64,000 nucleotides of DNA from Candidatus Poribacteria bacterium (GCA_965205065.1 CBDBFT010000001.1:1817782-1881781); one strand, 5' to 3'. Shown: positions 9,843 to 35,271, numbered from the stretch's first letter. The notes: generated from the sequence alone by a model not told the origin. A program made the numbers and translations.

Positions 9843-12800
9843 ATGGACTCTGTAGTGCAGCATATAGACGCAATTCATATCAGTGATCTTCAACCCGGTA
9901 CGACTCTGATAGACAAATACCAAAATACAGAACGCGTAATCCGTCAAGTACAGAAATTCAATACATCCGTGCGACTCTATTTTGAGAATGATATTGAACC
10001 GTTTACCTATTCTTTTGAAGAATTCCGATCGCGGTTTGAAATTGTCTCAGATGCTTTCCAAGCGGATGCGAATTTGGTGAGGTTGGTTGCTGAGGCACAT
10101 CGGTTGCGTCATGCTTATCTGTTCAATCCAATCTTTGCAACGGAAACATCGCTAATTGATCCGTTACCACATCAATTTATTGCTGTCTATGATCATTTAC
10201 TGAAACATTTCCCACTGCGTTTTCTCTTAGCTGACGATGCTGGTGCTGGTAAAACGATTATGACAGGACTCTACATCCAAGAGTTGTTATTGCGGCAACA
10301 GGTAGAACGCGTACTGATTGTACCACCAGCGGGTCTGATTGGTAACTGGGAACGTGAATTACGGGTATGTTTCCGACTCCAATTCTCTATACTGACAAGT
10401 GCTGATGCTGCACACACAAACCCTTTTGTTGATAGGCAAAATCGTTTAGCCATTGTAAGTCTTGATACATTACGACAGGAACGAATGCAGGAATGTCTTT
10501 TTGAAGCACAATCTTACGATCTGATTGTTTTTGATGAGGCACACAAATTATCTGCGAATTATGAGTCGGATGGAACGGTTAGGAAATCAAAACGGTACGA
10601 ACTTGCCGAAAAAATTGCTGCACAGGAAAAGAATTTACTACTGCTGACAGCAACGCCTCACATGGGTAAAGATGATGCCTACTATTTCTTGTGGCGACTA
10701 CTCTTGCCTGAACACCTTGCTGCACAAAAAGCCTTTAGTCGGATGTCTGAGAGTGAGAAGTCAAATCACTTACTCCGACGTATGAAGGAGGAGATGGTTA
10801 ACTTTGAAGGACAACCTATTTACCCGCCACGATATAGTCGGACTATTGCTTATCCGTTGAAGCAGGGAGAAATTAGTGAACAATCCTTATACGATGCTGT
10901 TACAGAGTATTGTGAAACCTATTTCGATCTCGCTGGACAATACAACCGGATGGCGGCAAAAATGGCAATGATGGTACTACAAAGACGACTTGCCAGTTCG
11001 ACGTCTGCACTATTGCAGAGTCTTATCAGACGTGAGGAAAAACTTCAAACCACCCTTCGTGAACTGCATGATGGCAGGTTGTCAGAAGATGGATTAGAAA
11101 GAGCACAAGCGAGTATTTCAGGCATTGACATCAGAGCAGAAAAAACAGGGGATGAGGAAGAGCCCGTTGATGGAAAAGAAGAAGCAGAACAGGTTGACGA
11201 AGATCTTGAGCGTGCAACAGCTGCGCGTTCAATTAACGAGCTTGAAAGTGAAATTTCCCATGTTAAAAAACTCGTTGAACATGCAAGAAAAGTGTTCAAT
11301 CTAAAATCTGAAAGTAAGTTTGAAAAACTGTGGGAGGCGTTAACAGACTATCAAGACGAAAAAGTTTTGATTTTTACCGAGCATCGTGATACGATGAACT
11401 TCGTCATAGAAAGATTAGAGGCTTTAGGTTATACTGACAAAGTTGCTCAAATCCACGGTGGCATGAAATATAGTGAACGGGAAGAACAGGTAGAGTTTTT
11501 TCGCGACCCAGATGGTGCGCGATACCTCGTGGCAACGGATGCTGCTGGCGAAGGTATTAACTTACAATTCTGTTGGCTCATGGTGAACTACGATATTCCT
11601 TGGAACCCCGCTCGACTTGAACAACGAATGGGAAGGATTCACCGTTATAAGCAGAAGCACACAGTGGTTTTGCTAAACCTTGTAGCTCAAGATACCCGTG
11701 AAGGGCGCGTGTTGAAAGTGTTACTGGACAAATTGGAAAAGATGCGCGAAGAATTGGATGATGATAAAGTTTTTGATGTTATTGGACAACAATTTAGCGA
11801 AATTTCTCTGTCTGATCTCATCACAAAAGCCATCATAGAGAATCAAGCGGATGCCTCAATTCAGACCCTTAACAATCAATTGGAAAATATACAAAATCAG
11901 ATTGAAGGGCAGCAAAACTTGGTAACCAATAGCGAAGTGAAACGATTACTTGACAACGTTCAGGAGCAAAGAGAAGCTGCAGAGACGCGTCGTATGCTAC
12001 CCGCTTATGTTAGAGGATTCTTTGAAGATGCAGCACCTTTACTCGGTTATCGTATTGAAGGTGATATAGAGACGACTTTTAAACTAAAACCTTGTCCGGA
12101 CTTTGTAGAAGATGTCTTTGAAAAACATCATGGTCAGCAAGATCATCTAACATTCTCACGGGAACTTGCTCTACCCGCTGAAACCGAGAAACTATCGGCA
12201 ATTTTCGTTCACCCTGGCGAATCAATCTTTGATACAATCCGCACTCAGTTTTTGGAGAAATACAACGCAGAAGGTGACCGTGGTGCAGTCTATTTCGATC
12301 CGCAAACTGATGAATCTTATCTGTTCTATTTGGTCAGAGTACCTATCGTGCGAAAAACTGATGAAACCCGTCAAAACCTTGAAGACATGTTGGTCGGAAT
12401 TAAACGTTTTGCAGATGGACGTTGTGAAGAAACACCAGCCCATCTGTTATTGACGTTAATACCACGAACAACAAAGCAGAGCATTCCTACAACGTTATCC
12501 TCTGAATGGTTTAACTTGACAAATGAAGTTGAACCCGTTAAAACTTTCGTAAGGGATAATTTTGGTGTTCCCAAACTTTCTCATATCCGTGATGGTCTTC
12601 AGTCCGAATTGGAATATAGGAGAATACAGATCCAAATTTCAAGTAACCTGCGAAAATCGGAACTGCTTGAACAAAGACGTAAACTCAAAGATGCCGTTGC
12701 CAGAGGAATACCTGCAGCACAGACAAAATTGAACAACTGTGAACGTGAATATAAAGAACTTGATAAAAAACGTCGGGAAGCAGAAGCGAGACTCGTTGAT

Positions 12801-13259
12801 GAAATAGAAAACATGCAATTAGGACCTGTAAATACCCATGTTCGTGCCTTTGTTACACCACCTCCTGTTGAAGCGGCGCAAACAAAAACACTTCGGGATG
12901 CCGAAACTATTGCGATCAGGACTGCCCTTGAATATGAAATAAATAATGGGGCAGAGGTTAAGGATGTCTCCAATCCAAATCTCAAAAAAGGATTTGATCT
13001 GCAATCCAGATATCCAAACGGTGAGGTGCGATATATAGAAGTTAAAGGTCGGACAGGGGTTACGAACGTTGAATTGACAGCGAATGAATGGCGACAAGCT
13101 GCAAATCACCGTAACCGCTACTGGCTTTATGTGGTTTATAATTGTGACACTGAACCACAAGTATACGGATGTCAAGATCCTTTTGGGAAATTAATTGCGA
13201 AGGCCAGAGGAAGTTTCATTATTAACGCCAGTGAAATTATTAACAATCAAGAATTGTAA
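9843..13259 (+). CDS. SNF2-family helicase with a C-terminal DUF3883-like (PD-(D/E)xK-type) nuclease domain
   Basis: Motif I LLADDAGAGKT, motif II FDEAHKL (DEAH), motif III LLLTATP, motif VI QRMGRIHRYKQ. The C-terminal ~150 aa (GEVRYIEVKGRTGVTNVELTANEWRQAANHRNRYWLYVVYNC) resemble DUF3883 / restriction-endonuclease-like cores. Confidence 0.85.
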   Translation: MDSVVQHIDAIHISDLQPGTTLIDKYQNTERVIRQVQKFNTSVRLYFENDIEPFTYSFEEFRSRFEIVSDAFQADANLVRLVAEAHRLRHAYLFNPIFATETSLIDPLPHQFIAVYDHLLKHFPLRFLLADDAGAGKTIMTGLYIQELLLRQQVERVLIVPPAGLIGNWERELRVCFRLQFSILTSADAAHTNPFVDRQNRLAIVSLDTLRQERMQECLFEAQSYDLIVFDEAHKLSANYESDGTVRKSKRYELAEKIAAQEKNLLLLTATPHMGKDDAYYFLWRLLLPEHLAAQKAFSRMSESEKSNHLLRRMKEEMVNFEGQPIYPPRYSRTIAYPLKQGEISEQSLYDAVTEYCETYFDLAGQYNRMAAKMAMMVLQRRLASSTSALLQSLIRREEKLQTTLRELHDGRLSEDGLERAQASISGIDIRAEKTGDEEEPVDGKEEAEQVDEDLERATAARSINELESEISHVKKLVEHARKVFNLKSESKFEKLWEALTDYQDEKVLIFTEHRDTMNFVIERLEALGYTDKVAQIHGGMKYSEREEQVEFFRDPDGARYLVATDAAGEGINLQFCWLMVNYDIPWNPARLEQRMGRIHRYKQKHTVVLLNLVAQDTREGRVLKVLLDKLEKMREELDDDKVFDVIGQQFSEISLSDLITKAIIENQADASIQTLNNQLENIQNQIEGQQNLVTNSEVKRLLDNVQEQREAAETRRMLPAYVRGFFEDAAPLLGYRIEGDIETTFKLKPCPDFVEDVFEKHHGQQDHLTFSRELALPAETEKLSAIFVHPGESIFDTIRTQFLEKYNAEGDRGAVYFDPQTDESYLFYLVRVPIVRKTDETRQNLEDMLVGIKRFADGRCEETPAHLLLTLIPRTTKQSIPTTLSSEWFNLTNEVEPVKTFVRDNFGVPKLSHIRDGLQSELEYRRIQIQISSNLRKSELLEQRRKLKDAVARGIPAAQTKLNNCEREYKELDKKRREAEARLVDEIENMQLGPVNTHVRAFVTPPPVEAAQTKTLRDAETIAIRTALEYEINNGAEVKDVSNPNLKKGFDLQSRYPNGEVRYIEVKGRTGVTNVELTANEWRQAANHRNRYWLYVVYNCDTEPQVYGCQDPFGKLIAKARGSFIINASEIINNQEL

Positions 13260-13339
13260 GAGTGCTCTATTCTTTCAATTTACCTAACTATATGGAAACG
13301 TCTTAGTCTGCTATAGAATCAGAAGATAACAAAAACAAT

Positions 13340-14410
13340 ATGAGATTACGAAAAGGGAAAACTAAAAATATACTTGAAGGTTCAATTAATGCTGCTTTGT
13401 TAGCAGTTGAAGTCTATAACAAACCTCGTACAACATTCCGCAGCCAAGCATATATTGTTTTAATGATTATCGCGTGGACACGTCTATTCCATGCTTACTT
13501 TAACAAAACCATTGGCGATAAATATTACTACAAAGAAAAAAATGGACGTTATAGAATAATTGATGGGGAGCGAAAAGCCTGGGGACTCAGGGATTGTATT
13601 AAAGAATACGGGGACCTTAGTGAACCTGTAAAAGAAAATCTCAATTTTTTCATCGGTTTAAGGAATAAAATAGAACACCGTAACGTGACAGAAAAAGAGG
13701 TAGATATATTAATTTTTGGAGAATGTCAATCCCTTCTCTATAACTATGAAAATCTCTTAATAGAGATTTTCGGTGAAGAGTATGCATTGAACGAAAACTT
13801 AGCTTTTTCACTTCAGTTTTCGTCTATGCGTACAGACGAACAGAAACAAGCAAACAAAAAGGTCTTATCAGCAGAAGCACAAAAAATAAAAAGTTATATT
13901 GATAATTACCGAACCGCTCTTGTTGATGATGTATACAATACTCAAGAATTTAGTATCAAACTTATCCAGATTCCTAAGGTATCTAATACTAATAGGTACG
14001 ATTTGGCAATAGAGTTTATACGAGAAGATGAGTTTGATCCAGATACACTTGAGAGTATTACTACAATCATTAAAGAAAAGCGTGTATTGGTAGAAGCAAA
14101 AAACGTTGATGGAATCCTTCCGGGTCAAGTCGTAACAGAAGTAAGAGAAAGAATTAATGTTGATTTTGTAATGCATGATCATACATGCCTTCGTACTATA
14201 TTCTCAATTAGACCCCTTGGGAAAGATCCAGAACCTAATAAAACTAATGTTAATTATTGTGTTTACGATCAGACTCATAAAGATTACATTTATCTGAATA
14301 GTTGGGTGGACTTCATTGTGAAACTCTATGAGAAGTACGGTCTAACGAAAGAGATAATTCGCCAAGCATACAATGCAGATGAGAAATGGGATATCAACAA
14401 ATATTCATGA
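13340..14410 (+). CDS. Hypothetical 356-aa protein with a HEPN-like motif (GLRNKIEHR); possibly the DUF3780-position gene of DUF1156/DUF499 systems
   Basis: Clean ATG ORF sitting tightly between the helicase and methyltransferase genes. An R-N-x3-H motif (FFIGLRNKIEHRN) lies in a predicted helical N-terminal half. No other recognisable catalytic motif. Confidence 0.5.
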   Translation: MRLRKGKTKNILEGSINAALLAVEVYNKPRTTFRSQAYIVLMIIAWTRLFHAYFNKTIGDKYYYKEKNGRYRIIDGERKAWGLRDCIKEYGDLSEPVKENLNFFIGLRNKIEHRNVTEKEVDILIFGECQSLLYNYENLLIEIFGEEYALNENLAFSLQFSSMRTDEQKQANKKVLSAEAQKIKSYIDNYRTALVDDVYNTQEFSIKLIQIPKVSNTNRYDLAIEFIREDEFDPDTLESITTIIKEKRVLVEAKNVDGILPGQVVTEVRERINVDFVMHDHTCLRTIFSIRPLGKDPEPNKTNVNYCVYDQTHKDYIYLNSWVDFIVKLYEKYGLTKEIIRQAYNADEKWDINKYS

Positions 14411-14453
14411 AACTCACTATAGGTTCTTAAATCAAAATAAAAAAGGAACATTA

Positions 14454-17387
14454 ATGCCCCGTAGACTCATTGAGGAGGCCTTCCCACTGCAAAAGGTTTC
14501 CGAAGACTCAAAGCATGAAAAGAATGTCCGCCACGGACACATCTCCACGTTACACATCTGGCCGGCGCGGCGACCACTCGCAGCATGTCGAGCTGTAACG
14601 ATAGCAACATTGCTACCAGACCCTGCTGATGCTCCTCCAAAAATCAAGGAAGAGTACACCCGTCTTTCCGGCTCGCCTTTGCCTGAAAAACAACGAGAAT
14701 ATTTGTGTAACGACTTAATTGCTTCGTTGACTCGGTGGGGAGACGAAAATGGACACGGTGATTGGGACAGAATAGATAGTAAAGGACGTTGGTTGAATAA
14801 ACTGCGAATTGTCAGAGAACTGATTAAGTTGGCTTACAATGGACATACACCGAAGGTCTTGGATATGTTTGCGGGTGGTGGTGCAATTCCGCTTGAAGCG
14901 ATGCGCCTCGGTTGTGAAGTCTTCGCAAACGACTATAATCCGGTTGCATGGTTTCTGCTCAAATGTACGCTTGAATATCCGCAGCGTCTCGCCGGAAAAA
15001 CCACACTCCTCCCTGAACTCAATCTTGATGAACGTCCTAATTTGAACAAAGGCAATCTTGCTGACCATGTTCGCTTGTGGGGACAATGGGTTTTGGAAAA
15101 TGCACAGAAGGAACTTGTAGAATATTATCCAGTGATTAATGAAAAACCAACGGTCGCCTATCTCTGGGCAAGAACAATTCCGTGCCAAGATCCACGATGC
15201 GGGGCGACGATTCCATTGCTTAAGACACTATGGTTATGCAAGAAGGCGGAGAAAAACCTTAAGAATACGCCCGAGAATATGGACCGCCCTGACTTCCTCA
15301 GAATCAAGGAAACACGCAACCAAACGAAAATCATCATCAATGCAAGACGTGCCCTCAAGCTCTGTCTAGACTCTGAGACGAAGTGTGTCCGATTTGAAAT
15401 TTTAGCACCAAGAAATGTAGAGGATGTGGGTAAACCCACGATGTTAGATGCAACGGCAACCTGTCCGTTTTGCGATTCACAGCAGCCAAAAGACTATATC
15501 AAACGATGTGGACATGAGGGCAAACTCAAGGCACAGATGACCTCAGTCGTTTATCAAGAAGAATACGGCAAGGAATATCGTCTACCCACACAAGAAGAAA
15601 TCGATAAAGCAGAAATACCAAAAGAAGTATTGGAAGCAGTTGCTAATCAGATTCCAAGCGGGATGCCTCATGAAGTATTGCCAAAAAGTGACACATCGGG
15701 GGCAGGTCGAGCATTTTCAGTACCACTTTATGGTTTCAAAGAATGGTCAGATCTATTCACAAATAGGCAGTTGTTGACATTAATGACATTTGTGAAGTGG
15801 ACACGGACAGTTAGAAAAGAGATTCAGAAGGTTAATTATTCTCAAGAATGGCTGGAGGCAATTGATAAGTATTTAGCAATAAATATTGATAGACTTGCTA
15901 CTTATAGTTCAATGCTTTCGATCTGGGTTGTGATTGGTGAATGTCAAGGTCAAACTTTCAGTCGTTACGCCCTACCTATAACTTGGGATTTCTCTGAAAT
16001 TAATCCATTTTCAGATAGCACGGGCAATTTTTTAGGAGGACTGGACTGGATTCAACGTTTTCTGGAACATGCCTTGAAAATCAAGAACAAATGCGTTCCA
16101 TGGATTAATCAACAATCGAGTCGGGATCTAGAAGGTCAAATTGTTGACACGATTATCACTGATCCTCCCTATTATGACGCAATCCCTTATGCAGATATTT
16201 CCGATTTCTTTTATGTATGGCTCCGTCGATCAATCGGCGACCACTTTCCTAATGTATTCAATGATTCACTTACACCGAAGTTGGACGAGTTAATACAACA
16301 TTCCGGACGCTTCAACAATAACAAAATAGTTGCTAAGGAATTTTACGAGAAAGGCATGGCGGAAAGCTTCCAATCAGCACATGATTTACTATCTAATGGT
16401 GGGCGAATAATGATAGTATTTGCTCATAAAGATCCGGATGCTTGGGAAACATTAGTAACAGCTATGATTCAAGCAGGTCTTGTTGTTACAGCATCTTGGC
16501 CGATTGATACAGAAAGATCTGGTAGGTTAAGATCCCGAGGATCAGCTGCTCTTTCCACCTCGCTTTGGCTCGTCTGTAGAAAACGACACATTAACTCTAA
16601 ACCTGGGCACTATGGTAAAGTCAAGAATGAAATGCAGAAGCGAATTACCGAACGTCTACGTTATTTTTGGGACGTGGGAATCCGAGGTCCTGATTTTGTC
16701 TGGGCAGCAATTGGACCGGCATTGGAAAGTTACTCAAGTTACAAAGAAGTTAGGCGACAGACAGGTGAACCTTTCACGGTAACCGAATTTCTCACAGAGG
16801 TGCGGCGTCTTGTAACTGACTTTGCGTTGGGACAGATTCTTCACGGGGCAAGCACGGAAGCATTGGACGAATGGACCCGCTACTATCTAATGCACAAGGA
16901 CTACTTCGGTACGGAGGATGCACCCGTAGGTGAGTGTATTCTATTGGCACAAGGATATGGAGTCCCGCTTGATGATTTAAGGTCAGCACAAATCGGATTT
17001 CTGAAGAAAGCTCGTTCAGGTAATGCACTCAAATTGCTTGGACATAAAGACCGGACATCAGACCGGGTTGGTTACACGCACACGTCAGGAAGAATCCCGA
17101 TGATAGACATGATCCATCGAATCATGAAACTTTGGGACGAGGGTGAAAGCGCGCAAATCAATGCCTACTTTCACGAGCATGGATTGCAAGAAAACGCGCT
17201 TTTTAAAGCTGTCGTGCAAGCACTCATTGAAACGAATGCTCAAGGTTCCAGTGAAAGATCACTTTTGGAGACACTTATCAATTATCAGCCAGGGGAATTA
17301 GTTAGTACTGTTGCTGGTTCTGGGAAATCGGATGCTGGCGTAGTTCAGCAACAACTTCCACTTGGCAAAATTTCAACAGATTCGTAA
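14454..17387 (+). CDS. DUF1156-family (COG1743) DNA methyltransferase with DPPY motif and zinc ribbon
   Basis: N-terminus MPRRLIEEAFPLQKVSEDSKHEKNVRHGHISTLHIWPARRPLAACRA is the DUF1156 signature. SAM-binding LDMFAGGGAIPLEAMRLGCEVFANDYNPVA. Catalytic TDPPYYDAIPY. Cys cluster CPFCDSQ...CGHEG. The ATG at 14454 has an upstream AAAAGGAA ribosome-binding site; the tool ORF starts at an upstream TTG/ATG inside the previous gene's end. Confidence 0.85.
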   Translation: MPRRLIEEAFPLQKVSEDSKHEKNVRHGHISTLHIWPARRPLAACRAVTIATLLPDPADAPPKIKEEYTRLSGSPLPEKQREYLCNDLIASLTRWGDENGHGDWDRIDSKGRWLNKLRIVRELIKLAYNGHTPKVLDMFAGGGAIPLEAMRLGCEVFANDYNPVAWFLLKCTLEYPQRLAGKTTLLPELNLDERPNLNKGNLADHVRLWGQWVLENAQKELVEYYPVINEKPTVAYLWARTIPCQDPRCGATIPLLKTLWLCKKAEKNLKNTPENMDRPDFLRIKETRNQTKIIINARRALKLCLDSETKCVRFEILAPRNVEDVGKPTMLDATATCPFCDSQQPKDYIKRCGHEGKLKAQMTSVVYQEEYGKEYRLPTQEEIDKAEIPKEVLEAVANQIPSGMPHEVLPKSDTSGAGRAFSVPLYGFKEWSDLFTNRQLLTLMTFVKWTRTVRKEIQKVNYSQEWLEAIDKYLAINIDRLATYSSMLSIWVVIGECQGQTFSRYALPITWDFSEINPFSDSTGNFLGGLDWIQRFLEHALKIKNKCVPWINQQSSRDLEGQIVDTIITDPPYYDAIPYADISDFFYVWLRRSIGDHFPNVFNDSLTPKLDELIQHSGRFNNNKIVAKEFYEKGMAESFQSAHDLLSNGGRIMIVFAHKDPDAWETLVTAMIQAGLVVTASWPIDTERSGRLRSRGSAALSTSLWLVCRKRHINSKPGHYGKVKNEMQKRITERLRYFWDVGIRGPDFVWAAIGPALESYSSYKEVRRQTGEPFTVTEFLTEVRRLVTDFALGQILHGASTEALDEWTRYYLMHKDYFGTEDAPVGECILLAQGYGVPLDDLRSAQIGFLKKARSGNALKLLGHKDRTSDRVGYTHTSGRIPMIDMIHRIMKLWDEGESAQINAYFHEHGLQENALFKAVVQALIETNAQGSSERSLLETLINYQPGELVSTVAGSGKSDAGVVQQQLPLGKISTDS

Positions 17388-17421
17388 GATATCAAGTTAC
17401 GACAATTAGAGGGGCAAGTCC

Positions 17422-20400
17422 ATGGACAAAAATGTATGGTATGAACATTGTAAATTGAGAGATGATGTGCGGAAGGACAAGCTTGAACTCTCAGAATTCG
17501 CAGCAGACCTCTATGCTGTGCGTATGAAGAACGCACCAGAAGTCTATCAATCCCCCAATCTCTTTTTTGACCGAACCTATCCGACCTACAAACTTAAAAC
17601 GTTAGTGCGAGATGTCCTTCGACGTTTAGCTGACGAGGGTGGAACCCCTGTTATTACGGTTCAAGTTGCTTACGGTGGCGGAAAGACCCACGCACTGATT
17701 GCGCTCTTACACTTAGCTGAACAAGGTCATGAATTCCAAACGCATACCACCGTGCGTGAGTTTATGTTGTTTAGTGGTTTAGATGCGGTGCCTAACGCGA
17801 GAGTGGCACTCCTTCCTTTTGATAAATTTGACGTGAAAAACGGACTGTCTGTGATAGGTCCAGGGGGTAAATCACGACAAGTAAAAACGCCGTGGGGAGC
17901 GTTGGCATACCAACTTGCTGGCGATGTAGGATTTGCAATGGTCGCTAAACATGAAGCAGACTATATCAATCCTGCTGAACAGACGCTTGTTGAGCTAATT
18001 AAAGCACCACAGAAGGATAATCTATCCACACTCATTTTACTTGATGAAGCATTGATGTATACGCGCGCGGCTGTGAATGACGATTCAAAGCGTATCGGTA
18101 TCCTTCATGATTTTTTCCAAGCACTAACACAGGCAGTTGATAAGGTTGATAGAGCTGCAATCGTGGCAAGCCTCATCACCTCCAATATTATTGCTAACGA
18201 TCCGACCGGTATTAGCGTACTGGATATGTTGGAAGGGGTATTTCGTCGTTTGGAAGAATCCGTTGAACCCGTTTCCCGATCAGATGTTTCAGAATTGCTC
18301 CGAAGGCGATTGTTTGAATCCATAGCCACAGAAGAAGAGATTCGTGCCATTGTAGATCGCCATATTGCAGCAATGCAGAAACTGCCGTTACGGGCAACTC
18401 AAAAAGATCAGGAAGCCTATGACAGACTCGTTAAATCCTATCCATTTCATCCTGATTTGATTGAGGTATTCTATCAAAAGTGGACACAACTGGATAAGTT
18501 TCAGGGAACTCGCGGCATGTTTCGGACATTTGCACTTCTTCTCAGAGATGGCGAAGGGGAAGACGAAGCTGCGTTTGTTGGGCCGAGCGCACTGTTGGGA
18601 TCTGATGACGAACTTTCGGATGCTATTCAAGAACTTATTAAAGCATGTGAAGAAGGCACCACAAAATGGACACCAATTTTAACAGGAGAACTTGATAAAG
18701 CTCGCGATATCCAAAGTACTATGCCTTTACTTAAATCTCGGGAGGCGGAAACAGCGGTATTATCCACATTTTTACATTCACAACCAATGGGGCAGAAAGC
18801 CGAATTGGCTGACCTTTACCTGCTGCTTGCCCATGCCGACATTGATGCAATGTCAGTAGAAAAAGGGATTTCCGAATGGCGCAAAGTTTCTTGGTTTCTC
18901 AAAGAAAACGATAATAGTTGGGCACTGGGAACAAATCCAAATTTAACAAGAATGCATGATCGTGCAATGGGAAGACTTACTGAAGAGCAAATAAACGAAA
19001 ATCTAACGAAAAGGATAAGAGATGCCTACCTTGGTCGAAACTCAGATAAAGTAGATTTTCACAATCTGCCCCAGTCACCTGCGGATATTTCAGACAACAC
19101 CGATCTTCACTTTGTGATTGCTGGTCCTGAATTGACAGCAGTCCCAGGTGAAGAGGTTTCCAAGAATTTAGCAGCGTTTTTTGATAGAACCTACAGTAAC
19201 AACGTCATCGTCCTTGCACCTGAAAACTCACTATTGGCAGGATTGCGGCAACGGATTCGTAGGATTCTTGGATGGGAGAATATTGAAAGCGGCGACGATA
19301 TGGATATGCTGAATAAGAATGAACCTTTGATAGAATTGCTAAAGCAGCGCAAAGAAGAGGATGGATCCGGTATTACAGAATCTGTCATATCCGCTTATAG
19401 TGTGCTGATAGCTTTAGACGAAGATGGGGAAATCAAAGCACATGCATTGTCGCCAGGGGCGGAATTACCTTTTGAGCGGGTGAAAGAATTTTTGGTAAAA
19501 CAGGATAGATTACTGACAACTTCACTGGATCCGTATTTACTCACACCAGAAAGTTATTTTGAGTTGTGGGGAGAAGATGATACTGCTAAACCAGTTCAAG
19601 AGTTGTATGGTATGTTTGCCAATCTATCCCGACTTTCTCGGATGTTGAATAGACAAGTATTTGTTGACACTCTTCAGCGCGGCGTTACGGACGGTAAGAT
19701 TGTGCTACGTACTGTGCGTGGAGATGGATCTCATCAGACTTTCTGGCGTGAAGTACCTACTGATGAGAATTTTAAGGAAAAATCGTTAGAAATTGTTCCA
19801 CTTGAACATGCTGAACTGCATAATCTGAGTCCTGAGTTATTGCTTTCTGATAAATTACCTGAAGTCTGGCAAGGAGAAAACGGCACAACGACGGTAGGAA
19901 CAATTCGGGAATTCTTTGAAGGAAATATAGCACCTAAACTGGCATCTGACGACATTCTGTTTGATGCAATTAAGTCTGCAGTTCAGAACGGTTTGTTGAT
20001 GGCACGGCTCAAAGACAAGGCATATCTTAAAGAGAACATACCTGACATTGAAATTAATGACGATTTGGAATTACTCGCTCCGTTAAAATCAATTAGCGGA
20101 TCGGAGATTGGTCATAAAACCTTGTCTGATGCATGGGAAAACGAAACTACATCCATTTCCAAAATTATGGACGCATTGGCAGTGAGCAAAGGCACACCGA
20201 TTCCGTGGTCTTTGATTCATGCTGCAGTCAATGATGGTTTATCAAAAAACTTGTTTGAATTTACTGAAGATAGTCCTATATGGCCTTGTAGTGTAAACGA
20301 AGCAGATAAAGTCGGTTTGAAGGTTTCAAAAGCCCCTGTGAAGATAGCTCCGAAGGATCTTATTGGAAATGATGCTGAAGATGCTTGGGAATCTGGACAA

Positions 20401-20772
20401 CCTACACTTGGATTAATTAAAGAGACACTTGAGAAAAAAAGAGGAATTACTATTACTGATGAAGTGTTTCGCTATGCAGTTGAAGAAGCAATCAGAATTG
20501 GAATGATTGCTTCAGAAGATTCATTAATTAATGGATTTTACAATGTTCGTGTGCGGCAACCTAAGTGGATGCGTCATACAGATTCTCATCTTACAGATAT
20601 GGAAATTCAAGATCTACCTGAAACAGTTGCCGATTTGTTTGAAATAGCCCCTGAACTTGATTTTAAATATCGCATTACAATTACTGCTGAAGGTGATCAA
20701 CCTTCAGATGAGGTGTTGAAAGAGATCAATGAGGCACTTCAGAAGGTTACAGAGGAATTGAAATTTGATTAA
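17422..20772 (+). CDS. DUF499-family (COG1483) P-loop ATPase, BrxC/PglY-like
   Basis: N-terminal region EFAADLYAV...PNLFFDRTYPTYKLKTL...VITVQVAYGGGKTHALIALLHL matches the DUF499 N-terminus and its Walker-A variant GGGKTH. Walker B-like LILLDEALMY. Length 1116 aa, typical for BrxC-like proteins. Confidence 0.8.
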   Translation: MDKNVWYEHCKLRDDVRKDKLELSEFAADLYAVRMKNAPEVYQSPNLFFDRTYPTYKLKTLVRDVLRRLADEGGTPVITVQVAYGGGKTHALIALLHLAEQGHEFQTHTTVREFMLFSGLDAVPNARVALLPFDKFDVKNGLSVIGPGGKSRQVKTPWGALAYQLAGDVGFAMVAKHEADYINPAEQTLVELIKAPQKDNLSTLILLDEALMYTRAAVNDDSKRIGILHDFFQALTQAVDKVDRAAIVASLITSNIIANDPTGISVLDMLEGVFRRLEESVEPVSRSDVSELLRRRLFESIATEEEIRAIVDRHIAAMQKLPLRATQKDQEAYDRLVKSYPFHPDLIEVFYQKWTQLDKFQGTRGMFRTFALLLRDGEGEDEAAFVGPSALLGSDDELSDAIQELIKACEEGTTKWTPILTGELDKARDIQSTMPLLKSREAETAVLSTFLHSQPMGQKAELADLYLLLAHADIDAMSVEKGISEWRKVSWFLKENDNSWALGTNPNLTRMHDRAMGRLTEEQINENLTKRIRDAYLGRNSDKVDFHNLPQSPADISDNTDLHFVIAGPELTAVPGEEVSKNLAAFFDRTYSNNVIVLAPENSLLAGLRQRIRRILGWENIESGDDMDMLNKNEPLIELLKQRKEEDGSGITESVISAYSVLIALDEDGEIKAHALSPGAELPFERVKEFLVKQDRLLTTSLDPYLLTPESYFELWGEDDTAKPVQELYGMFANLSRLSRMLNRQVFVDTLQRGVTDGKIVLRTVRGDGSHQTFWREVPTDENFKEKSLEIVPLEHAELHNLSPELLLSDKLPEVWQGENGTTTVGTIREFFEGNIAPKLASDDILFDAIKSAVQNGLLMARLKDKAYLKENIPDIEINDDLELLAPLKSISGSEIGHKTLSDAWENETTSISKIMDALAVSKGTPIPWSLIHAAVNDGLSKNLFEFTEDSPIWPCSVNEADKVGLKVSKAPVKIAPKDLIGNDAEDAWESGQPTLGLIKETLEKKRGITITDEVFRYAVEEAIRIGMIASEDSLINGFYNVRVRQPKWMRHTDSHLTDMEIQDLPETVADLFEIAPELDFKYRITITAEGDQPSDEVLKEINEALQKVTEELKFD

Positions 20773-21065
20773 GAAGTTTTTATCTTTGAACAATAGACAT
20801 TATAATGATTTAATTAGAATGTGTCTGATAGCACCAAGGTCTGAAGTATAGTCGAAAGTTGTGTAAACCACAGCAAGTCTCCATAATTACGTCACTGAAA
20901 CCATTCACCCAGTTGTGCAACTTATCTTTTACGATGTGGCATCTCTTGGTACTAATAAAATTGACGAAAACACAAAAAGGCAAACTTATACCATTTCTAA
21001 TTGCAATAGTTTCGCCAAAAACAGACATTCTATTAGATTGATCTTGAATTCTGGAGGGTTTTCTC

Positions 21066-21482
21066 TTAAATAATGATACCAAGTTCGGTTTTCCCGATTT
21101 TTAAGATGTCATAAACGTACCCATTGATGCGAAATCTCGCAAATAAGGCGATCGTTAGATTTACCATTTCCACACTCTTCGAAACGATAATAGACTTGCG
21201 CTTAAAACGCCCAAACCAATGCCGCATCAAACAATTGTTGCGTTCAATACCGTGCGTTTCTGCTTTGTCCTGAACTAACTTATCTTTGGGCAGAACCGAT
21301 TCATAAACCTGATAGTTATCCGTATAATAAACCTTCACATCCCATTTTTCCAAACGAGTCATTAGTTTCTTCAATGTCGCTTTATCCCGATCACCACACT
21401 CCCAGGCAATAAGTTCTCCAGTATCACGACACAAAGCTTTCCATATCCAGAGTTTCTGCTTTTTTTTTTCAAATAGTGCCAC
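21066..21482 (-). CDS. insB: IS1-family InsB (catalytic part; produced as an InsAB' fusion by -1 frameshifting)
   Basis: Overlaps insA in the -1 frame at the A-run. Length and position are typical of IS1 InsB. Confidence 0.7.
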   Translation of the reverse strand: MALFEKKKQKLWIWKALCRDTGELIAWECGDRDKATLKKLMTRLEKWDVKVYYTDNYQVYESVLPKDKLVQDKAETHGIERNNCLMRHWFGRFKRKSIIVSKSVEMVNLTIALFARFRINGYVYDILKIGKTELGIII

Positions 21483-21856
21483 ATCTCATCAAGTTCAAGC
21501 ACGACAGTATCGGTTTCCTGGGGTTCAGGGGGTTTCGCATGTTCAGCACCGAATTTTCTTATCCATTCAAGGATAGTGGAAGGGGAGGCTTGAAGCATTT
21601 TTGCGATGGCGTTCATAGAAAGTCCATGGCAATAGAGAAAAACTGCAAGTGCTTTCTCAGCAAGGGGTCTTCCCCGGTATGTGTGGTTTTCTGTCCACTG
21701 ATAGTTGCAATCTTTACATTTATACCTTTGTTTATCGTTGACGCGTCCATTTTTGACGAAGTGTGGGTGTTGACATCTTGGGCAATTCATGTGAGTTTCC
21801 TCCTGATGGGTGTATAGGTTTACTTTTAGCATAGTCTGCTTTTTTATATGTGTCAA
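21371..21856 (-). CDS. insA: IS1-family InsA (zinc-finger/HTH regulator, N-terminal part of the transposase)
   Basis: CPRCQHPHFVKNGRVNDKQRYKCKDCNYQW zinc finger; the remainder is similar to IS1 InsA. Confidence 0.75.
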   Translation of the reverse strand: MTHIKKQTMLKVNLYTHQEETHMNCPRCQHPHFVKNGRVNDKQRYKCKDCNYQWTENHTYRGRPLAEKALAVFLYCHGLSMNAIAKMLQASPSTILEWIRKFGAEHAKPPEPQETDTVVLELDEMWHYLKKKSRNSGYGKLCVVILENLLPGSVVIGIKRH

Positions 21857-30246: not shown

Positions 30247-30342
30247 AGAACTGTTAATCTGTCTGCCAACGAAATGATCACATGATACCTTTGTATACTT
30301 TTAATCTTGATTTCAACTACCCATATAATTGTCAGGTCAAAA

Positions 30343-32922
30343 ATGAAAAATGAACGACGCATATTCACATCTATTGCAATTCTCTCATTCATGTCAATAC
30401 TATGCTTTGGGTGCGATATACCAAACCCAAACCTACAACCGAATGTTGAAAAGGTGTCCGACTTGGATGATCCAAAACTTCGTGAATCGGTTTTTCAAAT
30501 AGCATTAGATGAGACAGATTTAGAAGTTAAACAGAACTTCTCAGGTGAAAACATTCATTATGCACCCAATAACACTGAACCTTATACGGGTTGGGTAAAG
30601 AACATAAGAAAACTACAGCAATTTCAGGACGGCAAAAAGCACGGCATCTTCATCAGTTGGTACGGCAATTGGGAAACGGTAGAGCAGGGATTCTTTAAGA
30701 ATGGGATACGTGATGGTTTATGGGTTCAGTGGAGCCCTAATGGAGAGAAAGAGAGTGAAGGTTCCTACAGGGATGGTTTTCGTGATGAAGTATGGATATT
30801 TTGGAATTCCAAAGGAGAAAAGACAAATCAGATTACATATCAGAATGGGAGAGTTCAAAACACGAAACATATTCCACATAAGGAAAAGGATAAAGACGAT
30901 CTTGGAAAAGCAACCAAGGAAAAAGTCACGCGTGCCTTTATACTGCATGAATCCAAACAGAGCAAAGCGGTAACAGGTCTACCAGATGGAGCAAAGAGGC
31001 GTATTGGCAAAGGTAAAATACATAACATTCTATATTCTCCTGATGGCTCACGGATCTTTGTGTTAACATCCATCGGGCTTTGGGTCTATGATGTAGATAG
31101 CGGAGAAGAAATTGCTGTGCCCGGGGATGTTGGAAAGTTAAGAAAAATAGCATTCAGTCCTGATGGCACAACGTTTGGAAGCATAGCAAATTCTGCTCCA
31201 ATCCAACTTTGGAATACATTGACAGGTAAGCAAGTACGAAACGTTGCCGATCTCAATTCTCCTGCAGATGACATCTTCTTCAGTCCTGATGGACGACTGA
31301 CTGTAACTGTGGATTACTATTCAGGAACTCTGTTGTGGGATACGCAATCAGGTGAACTTAAACAAAGCATCATTGGGAGAAAAGACAATGACCTTATGAC
31401 AATCTTTAGTCCAGATAGTGTTACCTTTGTCATTGGAAATGCAGAAAGACTCGATATATGGGATACACTCACTGGACAACGCATACAATCACTCGTCCCT
31501 AAAGAAGATAAATTTGATTACGTTCTCTTCAGTCCTGATGGCAAAACCTTTTTGACTCAAAGTAGCAATGGACATATTCATCTATGGGATCCACGTACGT
31601 GGCAAATCAAGAAAAGTCTTATACAGAATAAGAGTGTGCTGAGATGTGTAACGTTTAGTCCTGATGGAACAACCCTCGTTCATGGAAACAGTGATGGAAC
31701 TGTAAGTATATTTAATGCAGAAACAACAGAACATTTGCAGACACTCTCTGGCGATAACGTTAGTGTGCGTTGTATTGCGTTTAGTCCTGATGGATCAATC
31801 ATAGCAAGTGGTGATCAGTCAATGGCAATTCACCTATGGGATGTCCGCACAGGAAATCTGATAAATAAACTCACGGATCAGACTTTCAAAGATAAAGATA
31901 CCCTATACCGTGTAAGACACAGTAAACCATACATTAAACTCAAGTTTAATGTTAATGCGACAATACTCGTGAGTCAGAATGAAGACAATGAGGTACTGCT
32001 GTGGGATCTCCGAACAGGAAAGTATAGGAATCTTCTCACAGGATTCACTAAACCTATAAACAGTATCGCTCTTAATCCAGACGGGTCTATCCTCGCAAGC
32101 GGGAACAATGAAGGTACTATACACTTGTGGAATTACCGGACCGGACGAAAGATGCAAACACTGTTAGGACATACCAGTTCTGTTACAGATGTGATTTTTA
32201 GTCCTGATGGATCAATACTCGCAAGTGGAAGTTGGGACAGAACCATTCGTTTATGGAATATACAAACTGGTAAAGAGAAGAATAGACTTTCCGGACATAA
32301 GGAAGTAATTAAATGTTTTGCTTTCAGTCCTAATGGAACTACCCTTTCCAGTGGCGGACGTGAAGGCGAACTCATCCTATGGGATAGCCGCTCAGGACAA
32401 CATAAGAACACTCTAATTGGTCATACATCAGAAATTTACAGTGTCTCATTTAGTCGTGATGGAGGGACTCTCGCAAGTGGTGATCGTGATGCCACGATTC
32501 ATCTGTGGGATGTCAAAACAGGGGAACTGAAAAAAACACTCTCTGGTCATGAACATTATGTTTCAGCGGTCCTATTCAGTCCAGATGGAAAATATCTTGC
32601 AAGTGGCAGCTGGGATGACACTATACGGTTATGGGATGCTAACACTTTTGAACATAAGAGAACGTTAGTGTGGGATACTGTTTCAAGTCTTTCGTTCAGT
32701 CCAGATGGAAAAACTATAGCAGGTGGGAGTGTATTTTCACGTAAGAAACCATTCCTGGCAATTCGTCTATGGAATGTAAAGACTGGACAGGTAAAGATGA
32801 CTTTTATCGGACATACCGACCATATTTTTCAAGTGCTGTTCAGTCCAGACGGTAAAACTCTTGCGACAGCAAGTGATGACGGAACAATTCTCTTATGGGA
32901 TGTTACTGCTTTATCAAAGTAG
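30343..32922 (+). CDS. Lipoprotein with MORN-like N-terminal repeats and a ~14-blade WD40 beta-propeller region
   Basis: Signal peptide with lipobox (SFMSILCFGCD). MORN/YwqK-like repeats (GWVKNIRK..., WYGNWETVEQGFFKNGIRDGLW...). Many units of FSPDG(S/T)xLASGSxDxTIxLWD. The coordinates are taken from the tool frame; I saw a possible 1-nt offset when reading the text here. Confidence 0.75.
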   Translation: MKNERRIFTSIAILSFMSILCFGCDIPNPNLQPNVEKVSDLDDPKLRESVFQIALDETDLEVKQNFSGENIHYAPNNTEPYTGWVKNIRKLQQFQDGKKHGIFISWYGNWETVEQGFFKNGIRDGLWVQWSPNGEKESEGSYRDGFRDEVWIFWNSKGEKTNQITYQNGRVQNTKHIPHKEKDKDDLGKATKEKVTRAFILHESKQSKAVTGLPDGAKRRIGKGKIHNILYSPDGSRIFVLTSIGLWVYDVDSGEEIAVPGDVGKLRKIAFSPDGTTFGSIANSAPIQLWNTLTGKQVRNVADLNSPADDIFFSPDGRLTVTVDYYSGTLLWDTQSGELKQSIIGRKDNDLMTIFSPDSVTFVIGNAERLDIWDTLTGQRIQSLVPKEDKFDYVLFSPDGKTFLTQSSNGHIHLWDPRTWQIKKSLIQNKSVLRCVTFSPDGTTLVHGNSDGTVSIFNAETTEHLQTLSGDNVSVRCIAFSPDGSIIASGDQSMAIHLWDVRTGNLINKLTDQTFKDKDTLYRVRHSKPYIKLKFNVNATILVSQNEDNEVLLWDLRTGKYRNLLTGFTKPINSIALNPDGSILASGNNEGTIHLWNYRTGRKMQTLLGHTSSVTDVIFSPDGSILASGSWDRTIRLWNIQTGKEKNRLSGHKEVIKCFAFSPNGTTLSSGGREGELILWDSRSGQHKNTLIGHTSEIYSVSFSRDGGTLASGDRDATIHLWDVKTGELKKTLSGHEHYVSAVLFSPDGKYLASGSWDDTIRLWDANTFEHKRTLVWDTVSSLSFSPDGKTIAGGSVFSRKKPFLAIRLWNVKTGQVKMTFIGHTDHIFQVLFSPDGKTLATASDDGTILLWDVTALSK

Positions 32923-32935
32923 ATTGGGGACATAA

Positions 32936-34228
32936 ATGAAATTCAGAATTCAACGATCCAGTTCACACAAACATCTTTATAGTTACCTAAAATCTTCAGG
33001 ATTAAGGTTATTCACTTTTTCTTCGTTTCTCTTTCTGTTTTCAATGATTTCTATCTTAATCTGGATATCCCTATCATCCGAATCACAAGAAGGTAATACG
33101 GTTTCAGGTCGACTTATTGATACCGTCGGTAATCCTATTTCAGATATTAATATCTATCTTCGTCGTGATAAAGAACCCTCAATTAGTGCAGATGGTTCTA
33201 TCAATATTACCAGTACGGAAGATGATTCTGTCCAGATTAAAACGGATTCAAAGGGCCGTTTTGCTTTTTCTGATGTTTTCTATAAAATAATGGAGTTAGG
33301 TGTAGGCTGTCAATCCAAAATTGGTTATGAGATTAAAGTGTTGTCAATAGAATTTGGTGAGATTACGCTCTATCCTTTTCGCGCTTGGCATTGGTCAAGC
33401 GTTAATGTTGCTTTGGAACCTGGTGTAAGAATGGAGAACATCGTCATTACTGCTGACATCAGAAAACGTCCGAAGTTAACAACCCGTGTCGTCTATGCAG
33501 ATGGGACACCGGTTACTAATTCACAGGTATATGTTCTTAGGGAAACAAAGTCTTTATATAGAAAAGGAAAAGGTGATAGTCGTGGAGCTATAACTACTGA
33601 TCATGATGGATATTTTGCTGAATATCTATCTGTTGACTATCCCCCACGATTCTATGTTACGCTTGCTGTTGAACATCAAGGACTTTATGCTAAAGCGACC
33701 CCATTCATTATGATAGACGATGTTAACATTGTAGTGAAGCTAAACGGAAATCCTCAAACACATTCACAACCTATCCTGGAGTATTCCGAAATATATTCCG
33801 CTCTTGAAGCACTCCTTGAACCGACTCCAATGTGGATCGGTAACCAAACTAATGGACATGCCTACAAAATCACGCAAAGTCAGACAATAGAAGATGCAAT
33901 GCAGCAAGCGGAGGTAGAGGGTGCTTACCTGCTTTCTATCAACGATAGGTCAGAGGAGGTATGGCTTAGTCATATCTATGGCAATAAACGTATTTGGATT
34001 GGACTCAGTGATGCTAAAGAAGAGGGAAAATGGAAATGGCACAGCGGTGAACCTGTCACCTATACAAACTGGCTGCCATACCAACCTGAAAAAGGCAATA
34101 CAGAAACGAAAGATTATGTGATGACATATTTTTTTGACTGGCGATGGGATGTGACTGAAGCAGAATTCGGCAGAGCAATCCTTGAAAAGCCATCCATGCA
34201 ATTCATTTCACAACCTAACGAGAATTAG
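32936..34228 (+). CDS. Secreted protein with a carboxypeptidase-regulatory-like domain and C-terminal C-type lectin domain
   Basis: C-terminal WIGLSDAKEEGKWKWHSGEPVTYTNWLPYQPE is C-type-lectin-like. N-terminal TM/signal; the true start is possibly internal. Confidence 0.55.
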   Translation: MKFRIQRSSSHKHLYSYLKSSGLRLFTFSSFLFLFSMISILIWISLSSESQEGNTVSGRLIDTVGNPISDINIYLRRDKEPSISADGSINITSTEDDSVQIKTDSKGRFAFSDVFYKIMELGVGCQSKIGYEIKVLSIEFGEITLYPFRAWHWSSVNVALEPGVRMENIVITADIRKRPKLTTRVVYADGTPVTNSQVYVLRETKSLYRKGKGDSRGAITTDHDGYFAEYLSVDYPPRFYVTLAVEHQGLYAKATPFIMIDDVNIVVKLNGNPQTHSQPILEYSEIYSALEALLEPTPMWIGNQTNGHAYKITQSQTIEDAMQQAEVEGAYLLSINDRSEEVWLSHIYGNKRIWIGLSDAKEEGKWKWHSGEPVTYTNWLPYQPEKGNTETKDYVMTYFFDWRWDVTEAEFGRAILEKPSMQFISQPNEN

Positions 34229-34272
34229 CTTCTTCACAGTTCACAGTCCTCTATCTGCAAAGGAAAACGAAA

Positions 34273-35271
34273 ATGAATCTTCTGAAAACAGGCAATATCA
34301 TCTCAAAATTTGGGATTATCGTAATGTGCTGTGTCATACTGAATGCATGCAATACTAAGGATAACGCAGCAACCTTCTCTGGCACACTAATTGATATTGA
34401 TGGAAAACCGATTGCTGGACATATTGTTATGGTGTATCCAGTTGAGATGGGTGAAACCGGTTCAATGTTGTTTCATCCAATGAGGACAATTGCTGCTTTG
34501 CCAGGTTTCATAACAGCACACACTAAAAGCGACGGTTCATTTGCTATTAAAGAGAAGATCAATCAAGGTATGATTACAATTGGACTCTTGCCTATCAAAA
34601 TGCTTGATATAATAAACAACCCCAATAAAGCGAAAACTGAAATTACGACAGAATACCAACTCATTTCAGTCAAAATTGGTGTCATGACTCTCTATGAAGG
34701 TAAAGGTCCTGGAGGTGACATTGTCTTTTCTTTACCAACTGAAAAAAAGTTCAAGGATGTTGTGATCGTAGCACGACAGAATCCGGCACTGCCAGATCGA
34801 AAATTTGGTCAGGGGATGACCCAACTTCCAACAGAACCGACACCTCAACAGTGGATAGTGAATCCGTATAATGGACATGCATACATAAGGATAATGTGTG
34901 AAGGGTATGATGCTGCTAAAGCACGCGCACAAGCTGAAGGCGCATATCTCGTTGCAATTAATGATGCGGAAGAACAGAAGTGGGTGTCAAGCACATTCGG
35001 ATATGAACTCTATTGGATCGGATTGCACAAAACAGATACTGGACAATGGTTATGGGATAGCAAGGATCCTTTAGGTTATACTAACTGGGGACCTGAGGAC
35101 AGATTCCCTGAAGAAATCCTTGCTAAGAGTGAGAAAGTTGGGGCGGTTATGACTTTTGTTGACGGTGAGTGGCATGCAGTCGCACCCGGTGATCTGTTTT
35201 GGGATTATACAATATATGCGATTCTTGAAAAGAGCAGTTGGAAAATCGGAACAACATCAGAAGATAGATGA
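34273..35271 (+). CDS. Secreted C-type lectin domain protein (paralogue of the preceding gene)
   Basis: YWIGLHKTDTGQWLWDSKDPLGYTNWGPED. N-terminal hydrophobic signal. The N-terminal domain GTLIDIDGKPIAGHIVMVY is similar to the neighbour's GRLIDTVGNPISDINIYL. Confidence 0.55.
   Translation: MNLLKTGNIISKFGIIVMCCVILNACNTKDNAATFSGTLIDIDGKPIAGHIVMVYPVEMGETGSMLFHPMRTIAALPGFITAHTKSDGSFAIKEKINQGMITIGLLPIKMLDIINNPNKAKTEITTEYQLISVKIGVMTLYEGKGPGGDIVFSLPTEKKFKDVVIVARQNPALPDRKFGQGMTQLPTEPTPQQWIVNPYNGHAYIRIMCEGYDAAKARAQAEGAYLVAINDAEEQKWVSSTFGYELYWIGLHKTDTGQWLWDSKDPLGYTNWGPEDRFPEEILAKSEKVGAVMTFVDGEWHAVAPGDLFWDYTIYAILEKSSWKIGTTSEDR

Follow-up and report, generated by a model that had tools for sequence, protein, structure and literature searches.

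The window analyzed here, a 64,000-nucleotide stretch of DNA from a Candidatus Poribacteria bacterium (GCA_965205065.1, CBDBFT010000001.1:1817782-1881781), contains on its plus strand a gene encoding a 356-residue protein, located between hmaA and hmaB of an Hma (helicase-methylase-ATPase) operon, a known type of anti-phage system. A preliminary description, made from the sequence of the window, had drawn attention to a HEPN-like RNxxxH motif in this protein and had suggested that the surrounding system couples DNA methylation and helicase functions with an RNA-targeting effector. By its sequence, the protein is a member of the DUF3644/EC042_2821 family of HEPN proteins, and it is probably a two-domain single-protein defense effector, whose gene forms a cassette embedded where hmaA and hmaB meet. 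The gene and its parts are as follows.

13340..14410, plus strand: gene of the DUF3644/HEPN protein (PADLOC PDC-S19 family), an open reading frame (ORF) of 356 amino acids with an ATG start
13370..13918, plus strand: HEPN domain, residues 11–193, Pfam DUF3644, predicted to be all-alpha (Pfam match, AlphaFold2 (AF2) model, and Foldseek)
13646..13684, plus strand: FFIGLRNKIEHRN, predicted catalytic R-x4-H, residues 103–115 (conservation and alignments)
13937..14107, plus strand: interdomain segment, residues 200–256, poorly modeled (predicted local distance difference test (pLDDT) score of 39–66)
14108..14407, plus strand: C-terminal alpha/beta domain, residues 257–356 (pLDDT 92–98)

Motif, family, and predicted fold of the HEPN domain

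The motif pointed out in the preliminary description is indeed present in FFIGLRNKIEHRN, where R108 (codon start, 13661) and H113 (codon start, 13676) form the sole R-x4-6-H pair of the protein. Such pairs are common by chance: the pattern R.{4,6}H arises in 59% of 5000 residue shuffles of the same protein, with R.{4}H arising in 27% and RNxxxH in 2% of them, and the significance of the motif must therefore rest on conservation and fold. A chance match in a non-HEPN protein would agree with the first of these frequencies, but is effectively refuted by the invariance of the pair over 146 divergent homologues, the Pfam family membership, and the fold and register matches described below, so that its probability is negligible.

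Homologues numbered 1811 in a word-indexed search and 1266 (E ≤0.001) when 1.84 billion cluster representatives were searched exhaustively with HMMER. Conservation was counted among the 150 best representatives of 50%-identity clusters, with these being 27–87% identical to the query. R108 was found to be arginine in 145 of the 146 aligned representatives and H113 to be histidine in all 146, and N100 is asparagine in 144/144; position 109, directly after the arginine, is N, D, or H in 143/146 (N in 117, D in 18, and H in 8). It is this conservation across divergent homologues that raises the motif above chance. Among the full-length representatives, N27, N100, R108, H113, Q130, and N135 are each conserved in at least 95 of 96, a level reached at no other position, and all six of these near-invariant positions fall within the N-terminal domain.

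With respect to family assignment, residues 11–193 match PF12358 (DUF3644) with an E value of 4.8e-57 and a score of 192.9 bits (cut-off, 27.6), covering positions 2–182 of the 183-position profile. DUF3644 was described as a newly recognized HEPN family, the EC042_2821 family, occurring in restriction-modification (R-M) operons, and is listed among the families that keep the HEPN motif (Anantharaman et al., 2013; PMC3710099). At the level of the whole protein, residues 1–346 match positions 1–347 of the 353-position PADLOC model PDLC04950 of PDC-S19 (E 1.6e-135), and seven more PDC-S19 models also match. PDC-S19 is a single-gene phage-defense candidate derived from embedding in defense systems (Payne et al., 2024; bioRxiv 10.1101/2024.01.29.577857); no mention of it was found in the literature searched.

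The presumed prototype of the family in Escherichia coli 042 is a 437-residue DUF3644 protein (WP_001222856.1, L081:23188-24498) encoded beside the ssrA-island integrase, with its identity resting on this position and on its being the sole DUF3644 protein in the 50-kb stretch, in a record that does not carry the tag EC042_2821. The HEPN domain of this protein aligns with residues 8–153 of the window protein at 28% identity (BLASTP, E 2e-11), and this alignment places RNKIEH opposite RDQAVH, with R-x4-H in register. A profile comparison with hhalign matched residues 6–206 of the query to residues 94–284 of the prototype with a probability of 97%. In its own genome, the prototype gene lies directly after the integrase (L081:21384-24501), in an island whose insertion site is the tmRNA gene ssrA, and is followed by a DNA methyltransferase gene and conjugative-transfer genes (MobQ, TraD, and DotA/TraY).

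The first AlphaFold model, for which 26 close homologues were used, was of poor quality (pLDDT 64.6) and was replaced by a final AF2 model (pLDDT 83.8) based on a 138-sequence alignment (A4) including homologues from a profile search that are 37–47% identical to the query. In this model, residues 7–199 are all-alpha, with helices at residues 7–27, 34–58, 83–90, 95–112, 119–144, and 166–193 and with a beta-hairpin insert at residues 62–80, and the segment from R108 to H113 lies at the end of helix 95–112. The pLDDT values are mostly 83–98 up to residue 150 and 55–66 for residues 151–180. Residues 205–255 are of low confidence in the final model too; the shallower first model had beta strands there, at residues 205–210 and 222–227.

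Comparison of the model with the Protein Data Bank (PDB) by Foldseek gave HepT chains of the MntA-HepT complex at ranks 1, 2, 3, and 5 (probability 0.97–0.63), with template modeling (TM) scores on the target of 0.46–0.54; the best of these is 7bxo_G (probability 0.97, TM 0.54, E 0.11), followed by 6m6u. Lower matches include the HEPN-MNT complex (8xeh_B) and the HEPN domain of sacsin (3o10_C), and no match to the PDB reached E ≤0.001. A search of PDB sequences with the A3 profile returned four weak matches, three of which are HepT (6m6u_B, E 0.72; 5yep_B, E 1.1). In this profile alignment, NLxFFIxLRNKIEH...Q..L.NFE is in register with HepT NLKKMVGLRNIAVH...Q..L.DFE, the stretch holding the R-x4-H of HepT, and the motif itself is aligned with LRNIAVH. 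In addition, one relative (P0138) has a weak Pfam HepT-like match at the motif (E 0.024). A keratin match, the sole result obtained from PDB sequences with the profile of close homologues, was judged spurious. These structure and sequence links persuade only because they are mutually consistent and in register. The DUF3644 domain, the invariant R and H, the all-alpha prediction, and the HepT matches all support reading the motif as HEPN. The preliminary description had named two outcomes that would refute it, namely R and H that vary among homologues and a predicted fold other than an all-alpha bundle, and neither was obtained. The HEPN inference of the preliminary description is thus correct, and was already in the literature.

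A HEPN fold does not by itself imply catalysis, in that some HEPN families are non-catalytic (PMC3710099), and the protein could be a nucleotide- or nucleic-acid-binding regulator like MtlR or a non-catalytic HEPN. One relative has a very weak MtlR match (E 0.44), the helix-helix-hairpin layout of the C-terminal domain might permit nucleic-acid binding, and a match to the helix-turn-helix domain DpnI_C occurs in one relative (E 0.1). However, non-catalytic HEPN families typically lose the R and H residues, which are invariant here with N following R, and the domain has further invariant polar residues in a family with a conserved motif (PMC3710099). A non-nuclease role is thus very unlikely.

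The Hma operon and the distribution of the gene

The neighbors of the gene were identified as HmaA, HmaB, and HmaC by PADLOC and Pfam matches, and its location inside a system, as stated in the preliminary description, is borne out. The remaining features of the operon are as follows.

9762..9789, plus strand: candidate operon promoter upstream of hmaA, 11/12 consensus, the best in 9400–21400; a consensus match only
9843..13259, plus strand: hmaA, SNF2 helicase with C-terminal NOV_C/DUF3883 (PADLOC HmaA, E 3.3e-189; Pfam SNF2-rel_dom, Helicase_C, and NOV_C)
13260..13339, plus strand: 80-bp spacer separating hmaA from the HEPN gene, with no promoter- or terminator-like site; identical in the closest relative in the Genome Taxonomy Database (GTDB), locus L001
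14455..17387, plus strand: hmaB, DUF1156 DNA methyltransferase (PADLOC HmaB, E 1.6e-133)
17422..20772, plus strand: hmaC, DUF499 AAA+ ATPase (PADLOC HmaC, E 8.9e-100; Pfam DUF499)

The listed hmaB ORF begins at 14373, which gives a 38-bp overlap with the HEPN gene. Translation is likely to begin instead at the ATG at 14455 (MPRRLIEEAFP), 44 bp past the HEPN stop codon: alignments with homologues start only at about residue 28 of the listed ORF, and the overlap would then be an artifact of ORF listing. No plus-strand promoter- or terminator-like site was detected in the 80-bp spacer, and no plus-strand terminator-like site between the operon genes. A shared operon is proposed because the genes lie on the same strand with no detectable terminator, and hmaA alone is preceded by a good promoter-like site. 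No Hma model matches the 356-residue protein, with only the flanking genes matching HmaA, HmaB, and HmaC. An N-terminal HEPN domain in HmaC, corresponding to the Ava_2192 architecture described by Anantharaman et al. (PMC3710099), is not evident: the Walker A motif of HmaC (GGGKT) is located near residue 85, and no R-x4-6-H motif was seen on reading its first ~226 residues.

Hma has been defined as a three-gene system, with genes nested between the hma genes in 62.7% of systems—many of these being defense systems—and with no embedded gene in 37% (Payne et al., 2024). The arrangement in the window is of this "embedded defense gene" type.

For the Hma locus, the nearest relatives that carry a name are metagenome-assembled genomes (MAGs) of Candidatus Poribacteria. 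In a survey of the 80 best loci, with one genome per GTDB species, the order hmaA-DUF3644-hmaB-hmaC was found in only three (L001, L003, and L004), two of the three being from Candidatus Poribacteria, and the HEPN proteins of these loci are 65–72% identical to the query over full-length alignments. Usable data for 76 of the 80 loci showed no Hma genes, and the proteins of these loci are more distant from the query; at one further locus (L028), a partial HmaA-like helicase match lies 7.5 kb away with no other Hma match. Exact-protein look-ups of homologues with 85%, 79%, and 71% identity (L082–L086) all gave hmaA-[...]-DUF3644-hmaB-hmaC, with varied flanks. Among proteins with at least 65% identity, 9 of 10 loci (the window, L001, L003, L004, and L082–L086) are therefore Hma-embedded at the hmaA/hmaB junction, with L002 being the exception. 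A constant association with Hma thus fails across the protein family and holds only in this clade. As to the proposed coupling of methylation and helicase functions with an RNA effector, the link is one of genomic embedding, constant only in the closest clade; an obligatory functional coupling to Hma is no more than possible, since most family members occur without Hma genes.

The immediate neighbors at the Hma-free GTDB loci are heterogeneous, and include DNA methylases (N6_Mtase, 5; N6_N4_Mtase, 5; HsdM_N, 4; and Eco57I, 3), Shedu, OLD-type ATPases, and integrases. At L007 the gene is flanked by an hsdM gene on either side, with overlaps of 4 bp, and at L005 it lies between a methylase gene and a superfamily 1 (SF1) helicase gene. 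The junction itself also takes other genes: a Septu-like pair consisting of an ABC ATPase (AAA_15/AAA_21) and a protein of ~292 residues separates hmaA from the DUF3644 gene in two loci (L004:4429-6563 and L082:6706-8843), so that the junction carries two embedded cassettes at once. The L004 copy of the ~292-residue protein has a weak HNH match (E 0.027), and the L082 copy has no Pfam match on record. At L004, a Poribacteria MAG, the DUF3644 gene is interrupted past about residue 270 by a frameshift or an in-frame stop codon (L004:6736-7811), so that it represents a pseudogene or else an error of assembly.

From its presence at Hma-free loci and in other operons, together with its constant junction in the closest clade, the DUF3644 gene is taken to be a mobile module of a single gene, with a long residence in one Hma lineage. 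Alternatively, the HEPN protein could be an integral fourth Hma subunit in this clade, licensed by HmaABC on unmodified DNA, which would couple the recognition of DNA mechanistically to the cleavage of RNA. Such a subunit would account for the retention of the gene at the same junction among differing flanks and for the divergence of the HEPN protein roughly tracking that of HmaA, HmaB, and HmaC, and HEPN domains have been proposed to act with the DNases of R-M systems (Anantharaman et al., PMC3710099). However, the three-gene definition of Hma and the sizeable share of systems with no embedded gene argue against this explanation, as do the 76 Hma-free loci and the occurrence of the protein in operons of other kinds, type I R-M among them. 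Moreover, the Septu-like cassettes at the same junction imply a general insertion hotspot. Overall, we consider an integral subunit unlikely, and the nucleotide comparison with L001, given in the next section, bears on it further.

Another possibility is that the protein is an addiction toxin of toxin-antitoxin type, which stabilizes the Hma island and is not a defense effector. Among solved structures, its closest relatives are HepT toxins, and related Hma loci carry HepT-like and HEPN-MNT genes. A 119-residue HepT-like (PF01934) gene lies between hmaB and hmaC in two loci (L085:13355-13714 and L086:5203-5562), constituting a second HEPN gene of the operon that is unrelated to the DUF3644 one, and no called gene adjoining it matches an MNT family; in L082, a HEPN and NTP_transf_2 pair lies just downstream of hmaC. 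In the window, however, no match to an MNT or other nucleotidyltransferase (NTP_transf_2) was found among the Pfam-scanned ORFs at 4479–35271; the adjoining genes are those of HmaA and HmaB, and there is no adjoining ORF of at least 80 residues except for overlapping opposite-strand or alternative-frame ones. The protein is also three times the size of HepT, with an extra domain, and its family context is that of R-M and defense operons. An addiction role is thus highly improbable.

Several other features of the surrounding DNA were recorded. Directly upstream of hmaA lies a divergent pair of minus-strand genes (4479–9636) with ORFs overlapping by 17 bp, namely those for a SIR2_2-domain protein (8566–9636), with ThsA/LmuA-like PADLOC matches, and for a 1367-residue STAND/NACHT NTPase (4479–8582), which matches the PADLOC candidate PDC-M54A (E 2e-174). 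A STAND gene that is 56% identical occurs at the equivalent place in L001, and a SIR2_2 gene occurs upstream of hmaA in L082, from which the island seems to be a conserved two-system unit. Immediately downstream of hmaC lies an IS1-family transposase on the minus strand (21066–21856) in two overlapping frames—an InsA-like zinc-ribbon/helix-turn-helix ORF (21371–21856) and a DDE_Tnp_IS1 ORF (21066–21482, E 1.5e-21)—which probably marks the edge of the defense island. Candidatus Poribacteria are a lineage of sponge symbionts, and an 871-residue WD40-repeat protein and two C-type-lectin-domain proteins, eukaryote-like and encoded at 30307–35271, fit such an origin.

Evolution of the gene and its C-terminal domain

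Comparison of the operon (window 9777–20772) with that of the closest GTDB relative (L001:6245-17438) showed a nucleotide identity of 94–98% over most of hmaA, with a dip to 70–85% at 12577–12976. The identity is 100% in the spacer and 94–98% in the first ~240 nucleotides of the HEPN gene, and falls to 59–77% in the rest of the gene, from about 13577; the low-identity tract runs on into hmaB, to about 16540, with a minimum of 43–64% at about 15560–16340, and blocks of 86–98% identity resume in the 3′ end of hmaB and in hmaC. Compared with that of L001, the Hma operon is thus mosaic in structure. The hypervariable stretch of hmaB at about 15560–16340 may be the target-recognition region. The synonymous divergence (dS) is 0.13 for codons 1–79 of the HEPN gene and at least 0.7 downstream, and this jump, together with that in identity at about codon 79, indicates a recombination breakpoint within the HEPN gene. 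Because the tract from about 13577 covers the greater part of hmaB, with the most variable stretch of that gene included, it could be taken in favor of an integral subunit; however, a contiguous tract of this kind is explicable by a single recombination event, with no functional link needed.

Among the Hma-embedded relatives, residues 1–79 are 84–94% identical, and residues 257–356 are 51–59% identical in four of the five intact copies and 83% identical in the fifth (L082). The ratio of nonsynonymous to synonymous divergence (dN/dS) among close homologues is 0.02–0.21 for the HEPN part and 0.22–0.49 for the C-terminal domain, and is below 1 in every region and pair with an estimable dS. This pattern shows that the gene is under purifying selection, with the C-terminal domain being its fast-evolving part.

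The C-terminal domain in the AF2 model consists of helices at residues 261–271 and 278–287, strands at residues 307–310 and 315–318, and helices at residues 320–331 and 337–345. In the C-terminal half of the 96 full-length representatives, only P212, F226, C307, and Y318 reach 80% conservation—P212 and F226 being the only such positions in residues 200–256—and no polar residue is conserved; in particular, the C-terminal domain has no conserved acidic or lysine catalytic residues.

PF18740, annotated as "EC042_2821-like REase-like," was considered for this domain. Residues 194–356 gave no PF18740 match even at E ≤10 and no direct Pfam match of any kind. Weak PF18740 matches occur in 8 of 96 relatives (E 0.0022–0.01), one of which (P0189, E 0.0053) has its match at about residues 268–329 of the window protein, a position estimated by phmmer offset; the E. 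coli prototype is itself below the PF18740 cut-off. With an hhalign probability of 0.9% against the C-terminus of the E. coli 042 protein, in addition to there being no direct match, the assignment to PF18740 was rejected; a homology search from that C-terminus returned only three near-identical sequences, insufficient for a profile. REase-like homology of the C-terminal domain is thus unproven by sequence comparison, and nuclease activity appears unlikely; since it lacks conserved polar residues, the domain is not called a nuclease here. Its fast divergence together with the missing catalytic residues suggests a sensor or specificity module.

Proposed function and comparison with known systems

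The reading that we favor, and hold to be probable, is that of a two-domain single-protein defense effector. By analogy with HepT, Cas13, Csm6, RnlA, and HEC-08, the HEPN domain would dimerize to form a composite R/H active site, in which the R-x4-H residues would carry out metal-independent RNA cleavage. The C-terminal domain would hold the HEPN domain inactive until an infection cue or foreign nucleic acid is sensed, and the activated RNase would then degrade host and/or invader RNA. The expected outcome would be growth arrest or abortive infection, or else loss of the invading replicon, as for Ishtar and RP4. Cotranscription with Hma would back up the DNA-directed Hma system with a second layer that acts on RNA.

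Several points weigh against a defense effector of this kind. The RNase and defense roles are assigned by analogy, PDC-S19 being a candidate class only, and the validated DUF3644-like protein HEC-08 is, by profile comparison, not detectably related to the window protein. The links to solved HEPN proteins are each non-significant (Foldseek, E 0.11; hmmsearch, E 0.7–1.8). Variability and the missing catalytic residues are all that points to the putative sensor role. Finally, Hma embedding in nearly all loci with at least 65% identity would also be expected of an integral subunit.

What the locus adds is a clean natural example of a PDC-S19 gene kept at the hmaA/hmaB junction, six near-invariant residues to guide mutagenesis of this candidate, and evidence for the C-terminal domain as its variable part. 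Little else is new: the HEPN class dates from 2013, Hma-embedded defense genes of the RNase type date from 2024, and a PADLOC PDC-S19 model already exists. Greater importance would follow only if the RNase were mechanistically coupled to Hma. A stronger form of such coupling, in which the DUF3644 protein is a fixed and functionally integrated fourth Hma component in this clade, with its rapidly diverging C-terminal domain reading the state or specificity of the HmaB methyltransferase/recognition module (both fall within the single low-identity tract relative to L001), seems quite doubtful to us; the named members of the clade concerned are Candidatus Poribacteria. If true, DNA recognition by Hma would license the RNase, giving a DNA-sensing and RNA-cleaving hybrid unlike an independent "embedded passenger."

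Among known systems, HepT (SO_3166) of the MntA-HepT type VII toxin-antitoxin system is the top match by structure as well as by PDB sequence, and shares NL..LRN...H....Q..L..FE in register. HepT has ~133 residues and is neutralized by its cognate MNT nucleotidyltransferase, whereas the window protein has no MNT partner, and has insertions in the HEPN domain (the hairpin at residues 62–80) and a 160-residue C-terminal extension. The E. coli 042 prototype differs in having an N-terminal extension of ~95 residues, also present in relatives of 420–470 residues, and a PF18740 "REase-like" C-terminus, to which the C-terminal domain of the window protein has no detectable similarity. The likeness to PDC-S19 extends over the full length, and in both cases a single gene is nested in the same orientation in a multi-gene defense system, with no structural difference.

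HEC-08 is a Hma-embedded HEPN protein in which an H-to-A change (H128) in R-x4-6-H abolishes defense, and it was described as having an N-terminal DUF3644 domain (Payne et al., 2024). Like the window protein, it is embedded in Hma, has RNxxxH, and combines an N-terminal HEPN domain with a C-terminal accessory part in ~360 residues. However, the HEC-08 sequence, taken from Table S2 of Payne et al. (2024), has no PF12358 match at E ≤0.1 in the current Pfam, and its comparison with the window protein gave an hhalign probability of 0.1%, with the sole alignment being that of LRNKIEH on HRNRVVH. Furthermore, the C-terminus of HEC-08 has Cys-rich zinc ribbons and that of the window protein has none: the latter contains no CxxC pairs, with C307 being the sole conserved Cys of its C-terminal half. 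Membership in HEC-08 was rejected on these grounds.

Ishtar comprises monogenic Acinetobacter proteins with an N-terminal DUF4145 or DUF3644 HEPN domain and an uncharacterized alpha/beta C-terminus, which are reported to cause rapid loss of plasmid RP4 (2026 preprint, bioRxiv 10.64898/2026.07.06.735840). Compared by description of architecture only, Ishtar (Ist2, MGQ1310977.1; A. baumannii) has a layout like that of the window protein and often lies near defense genes; its description includes no Hma embedding, in contrast to the window gene. An Acinetobacter homologue of the window protein (L052) is 53% identical to it.

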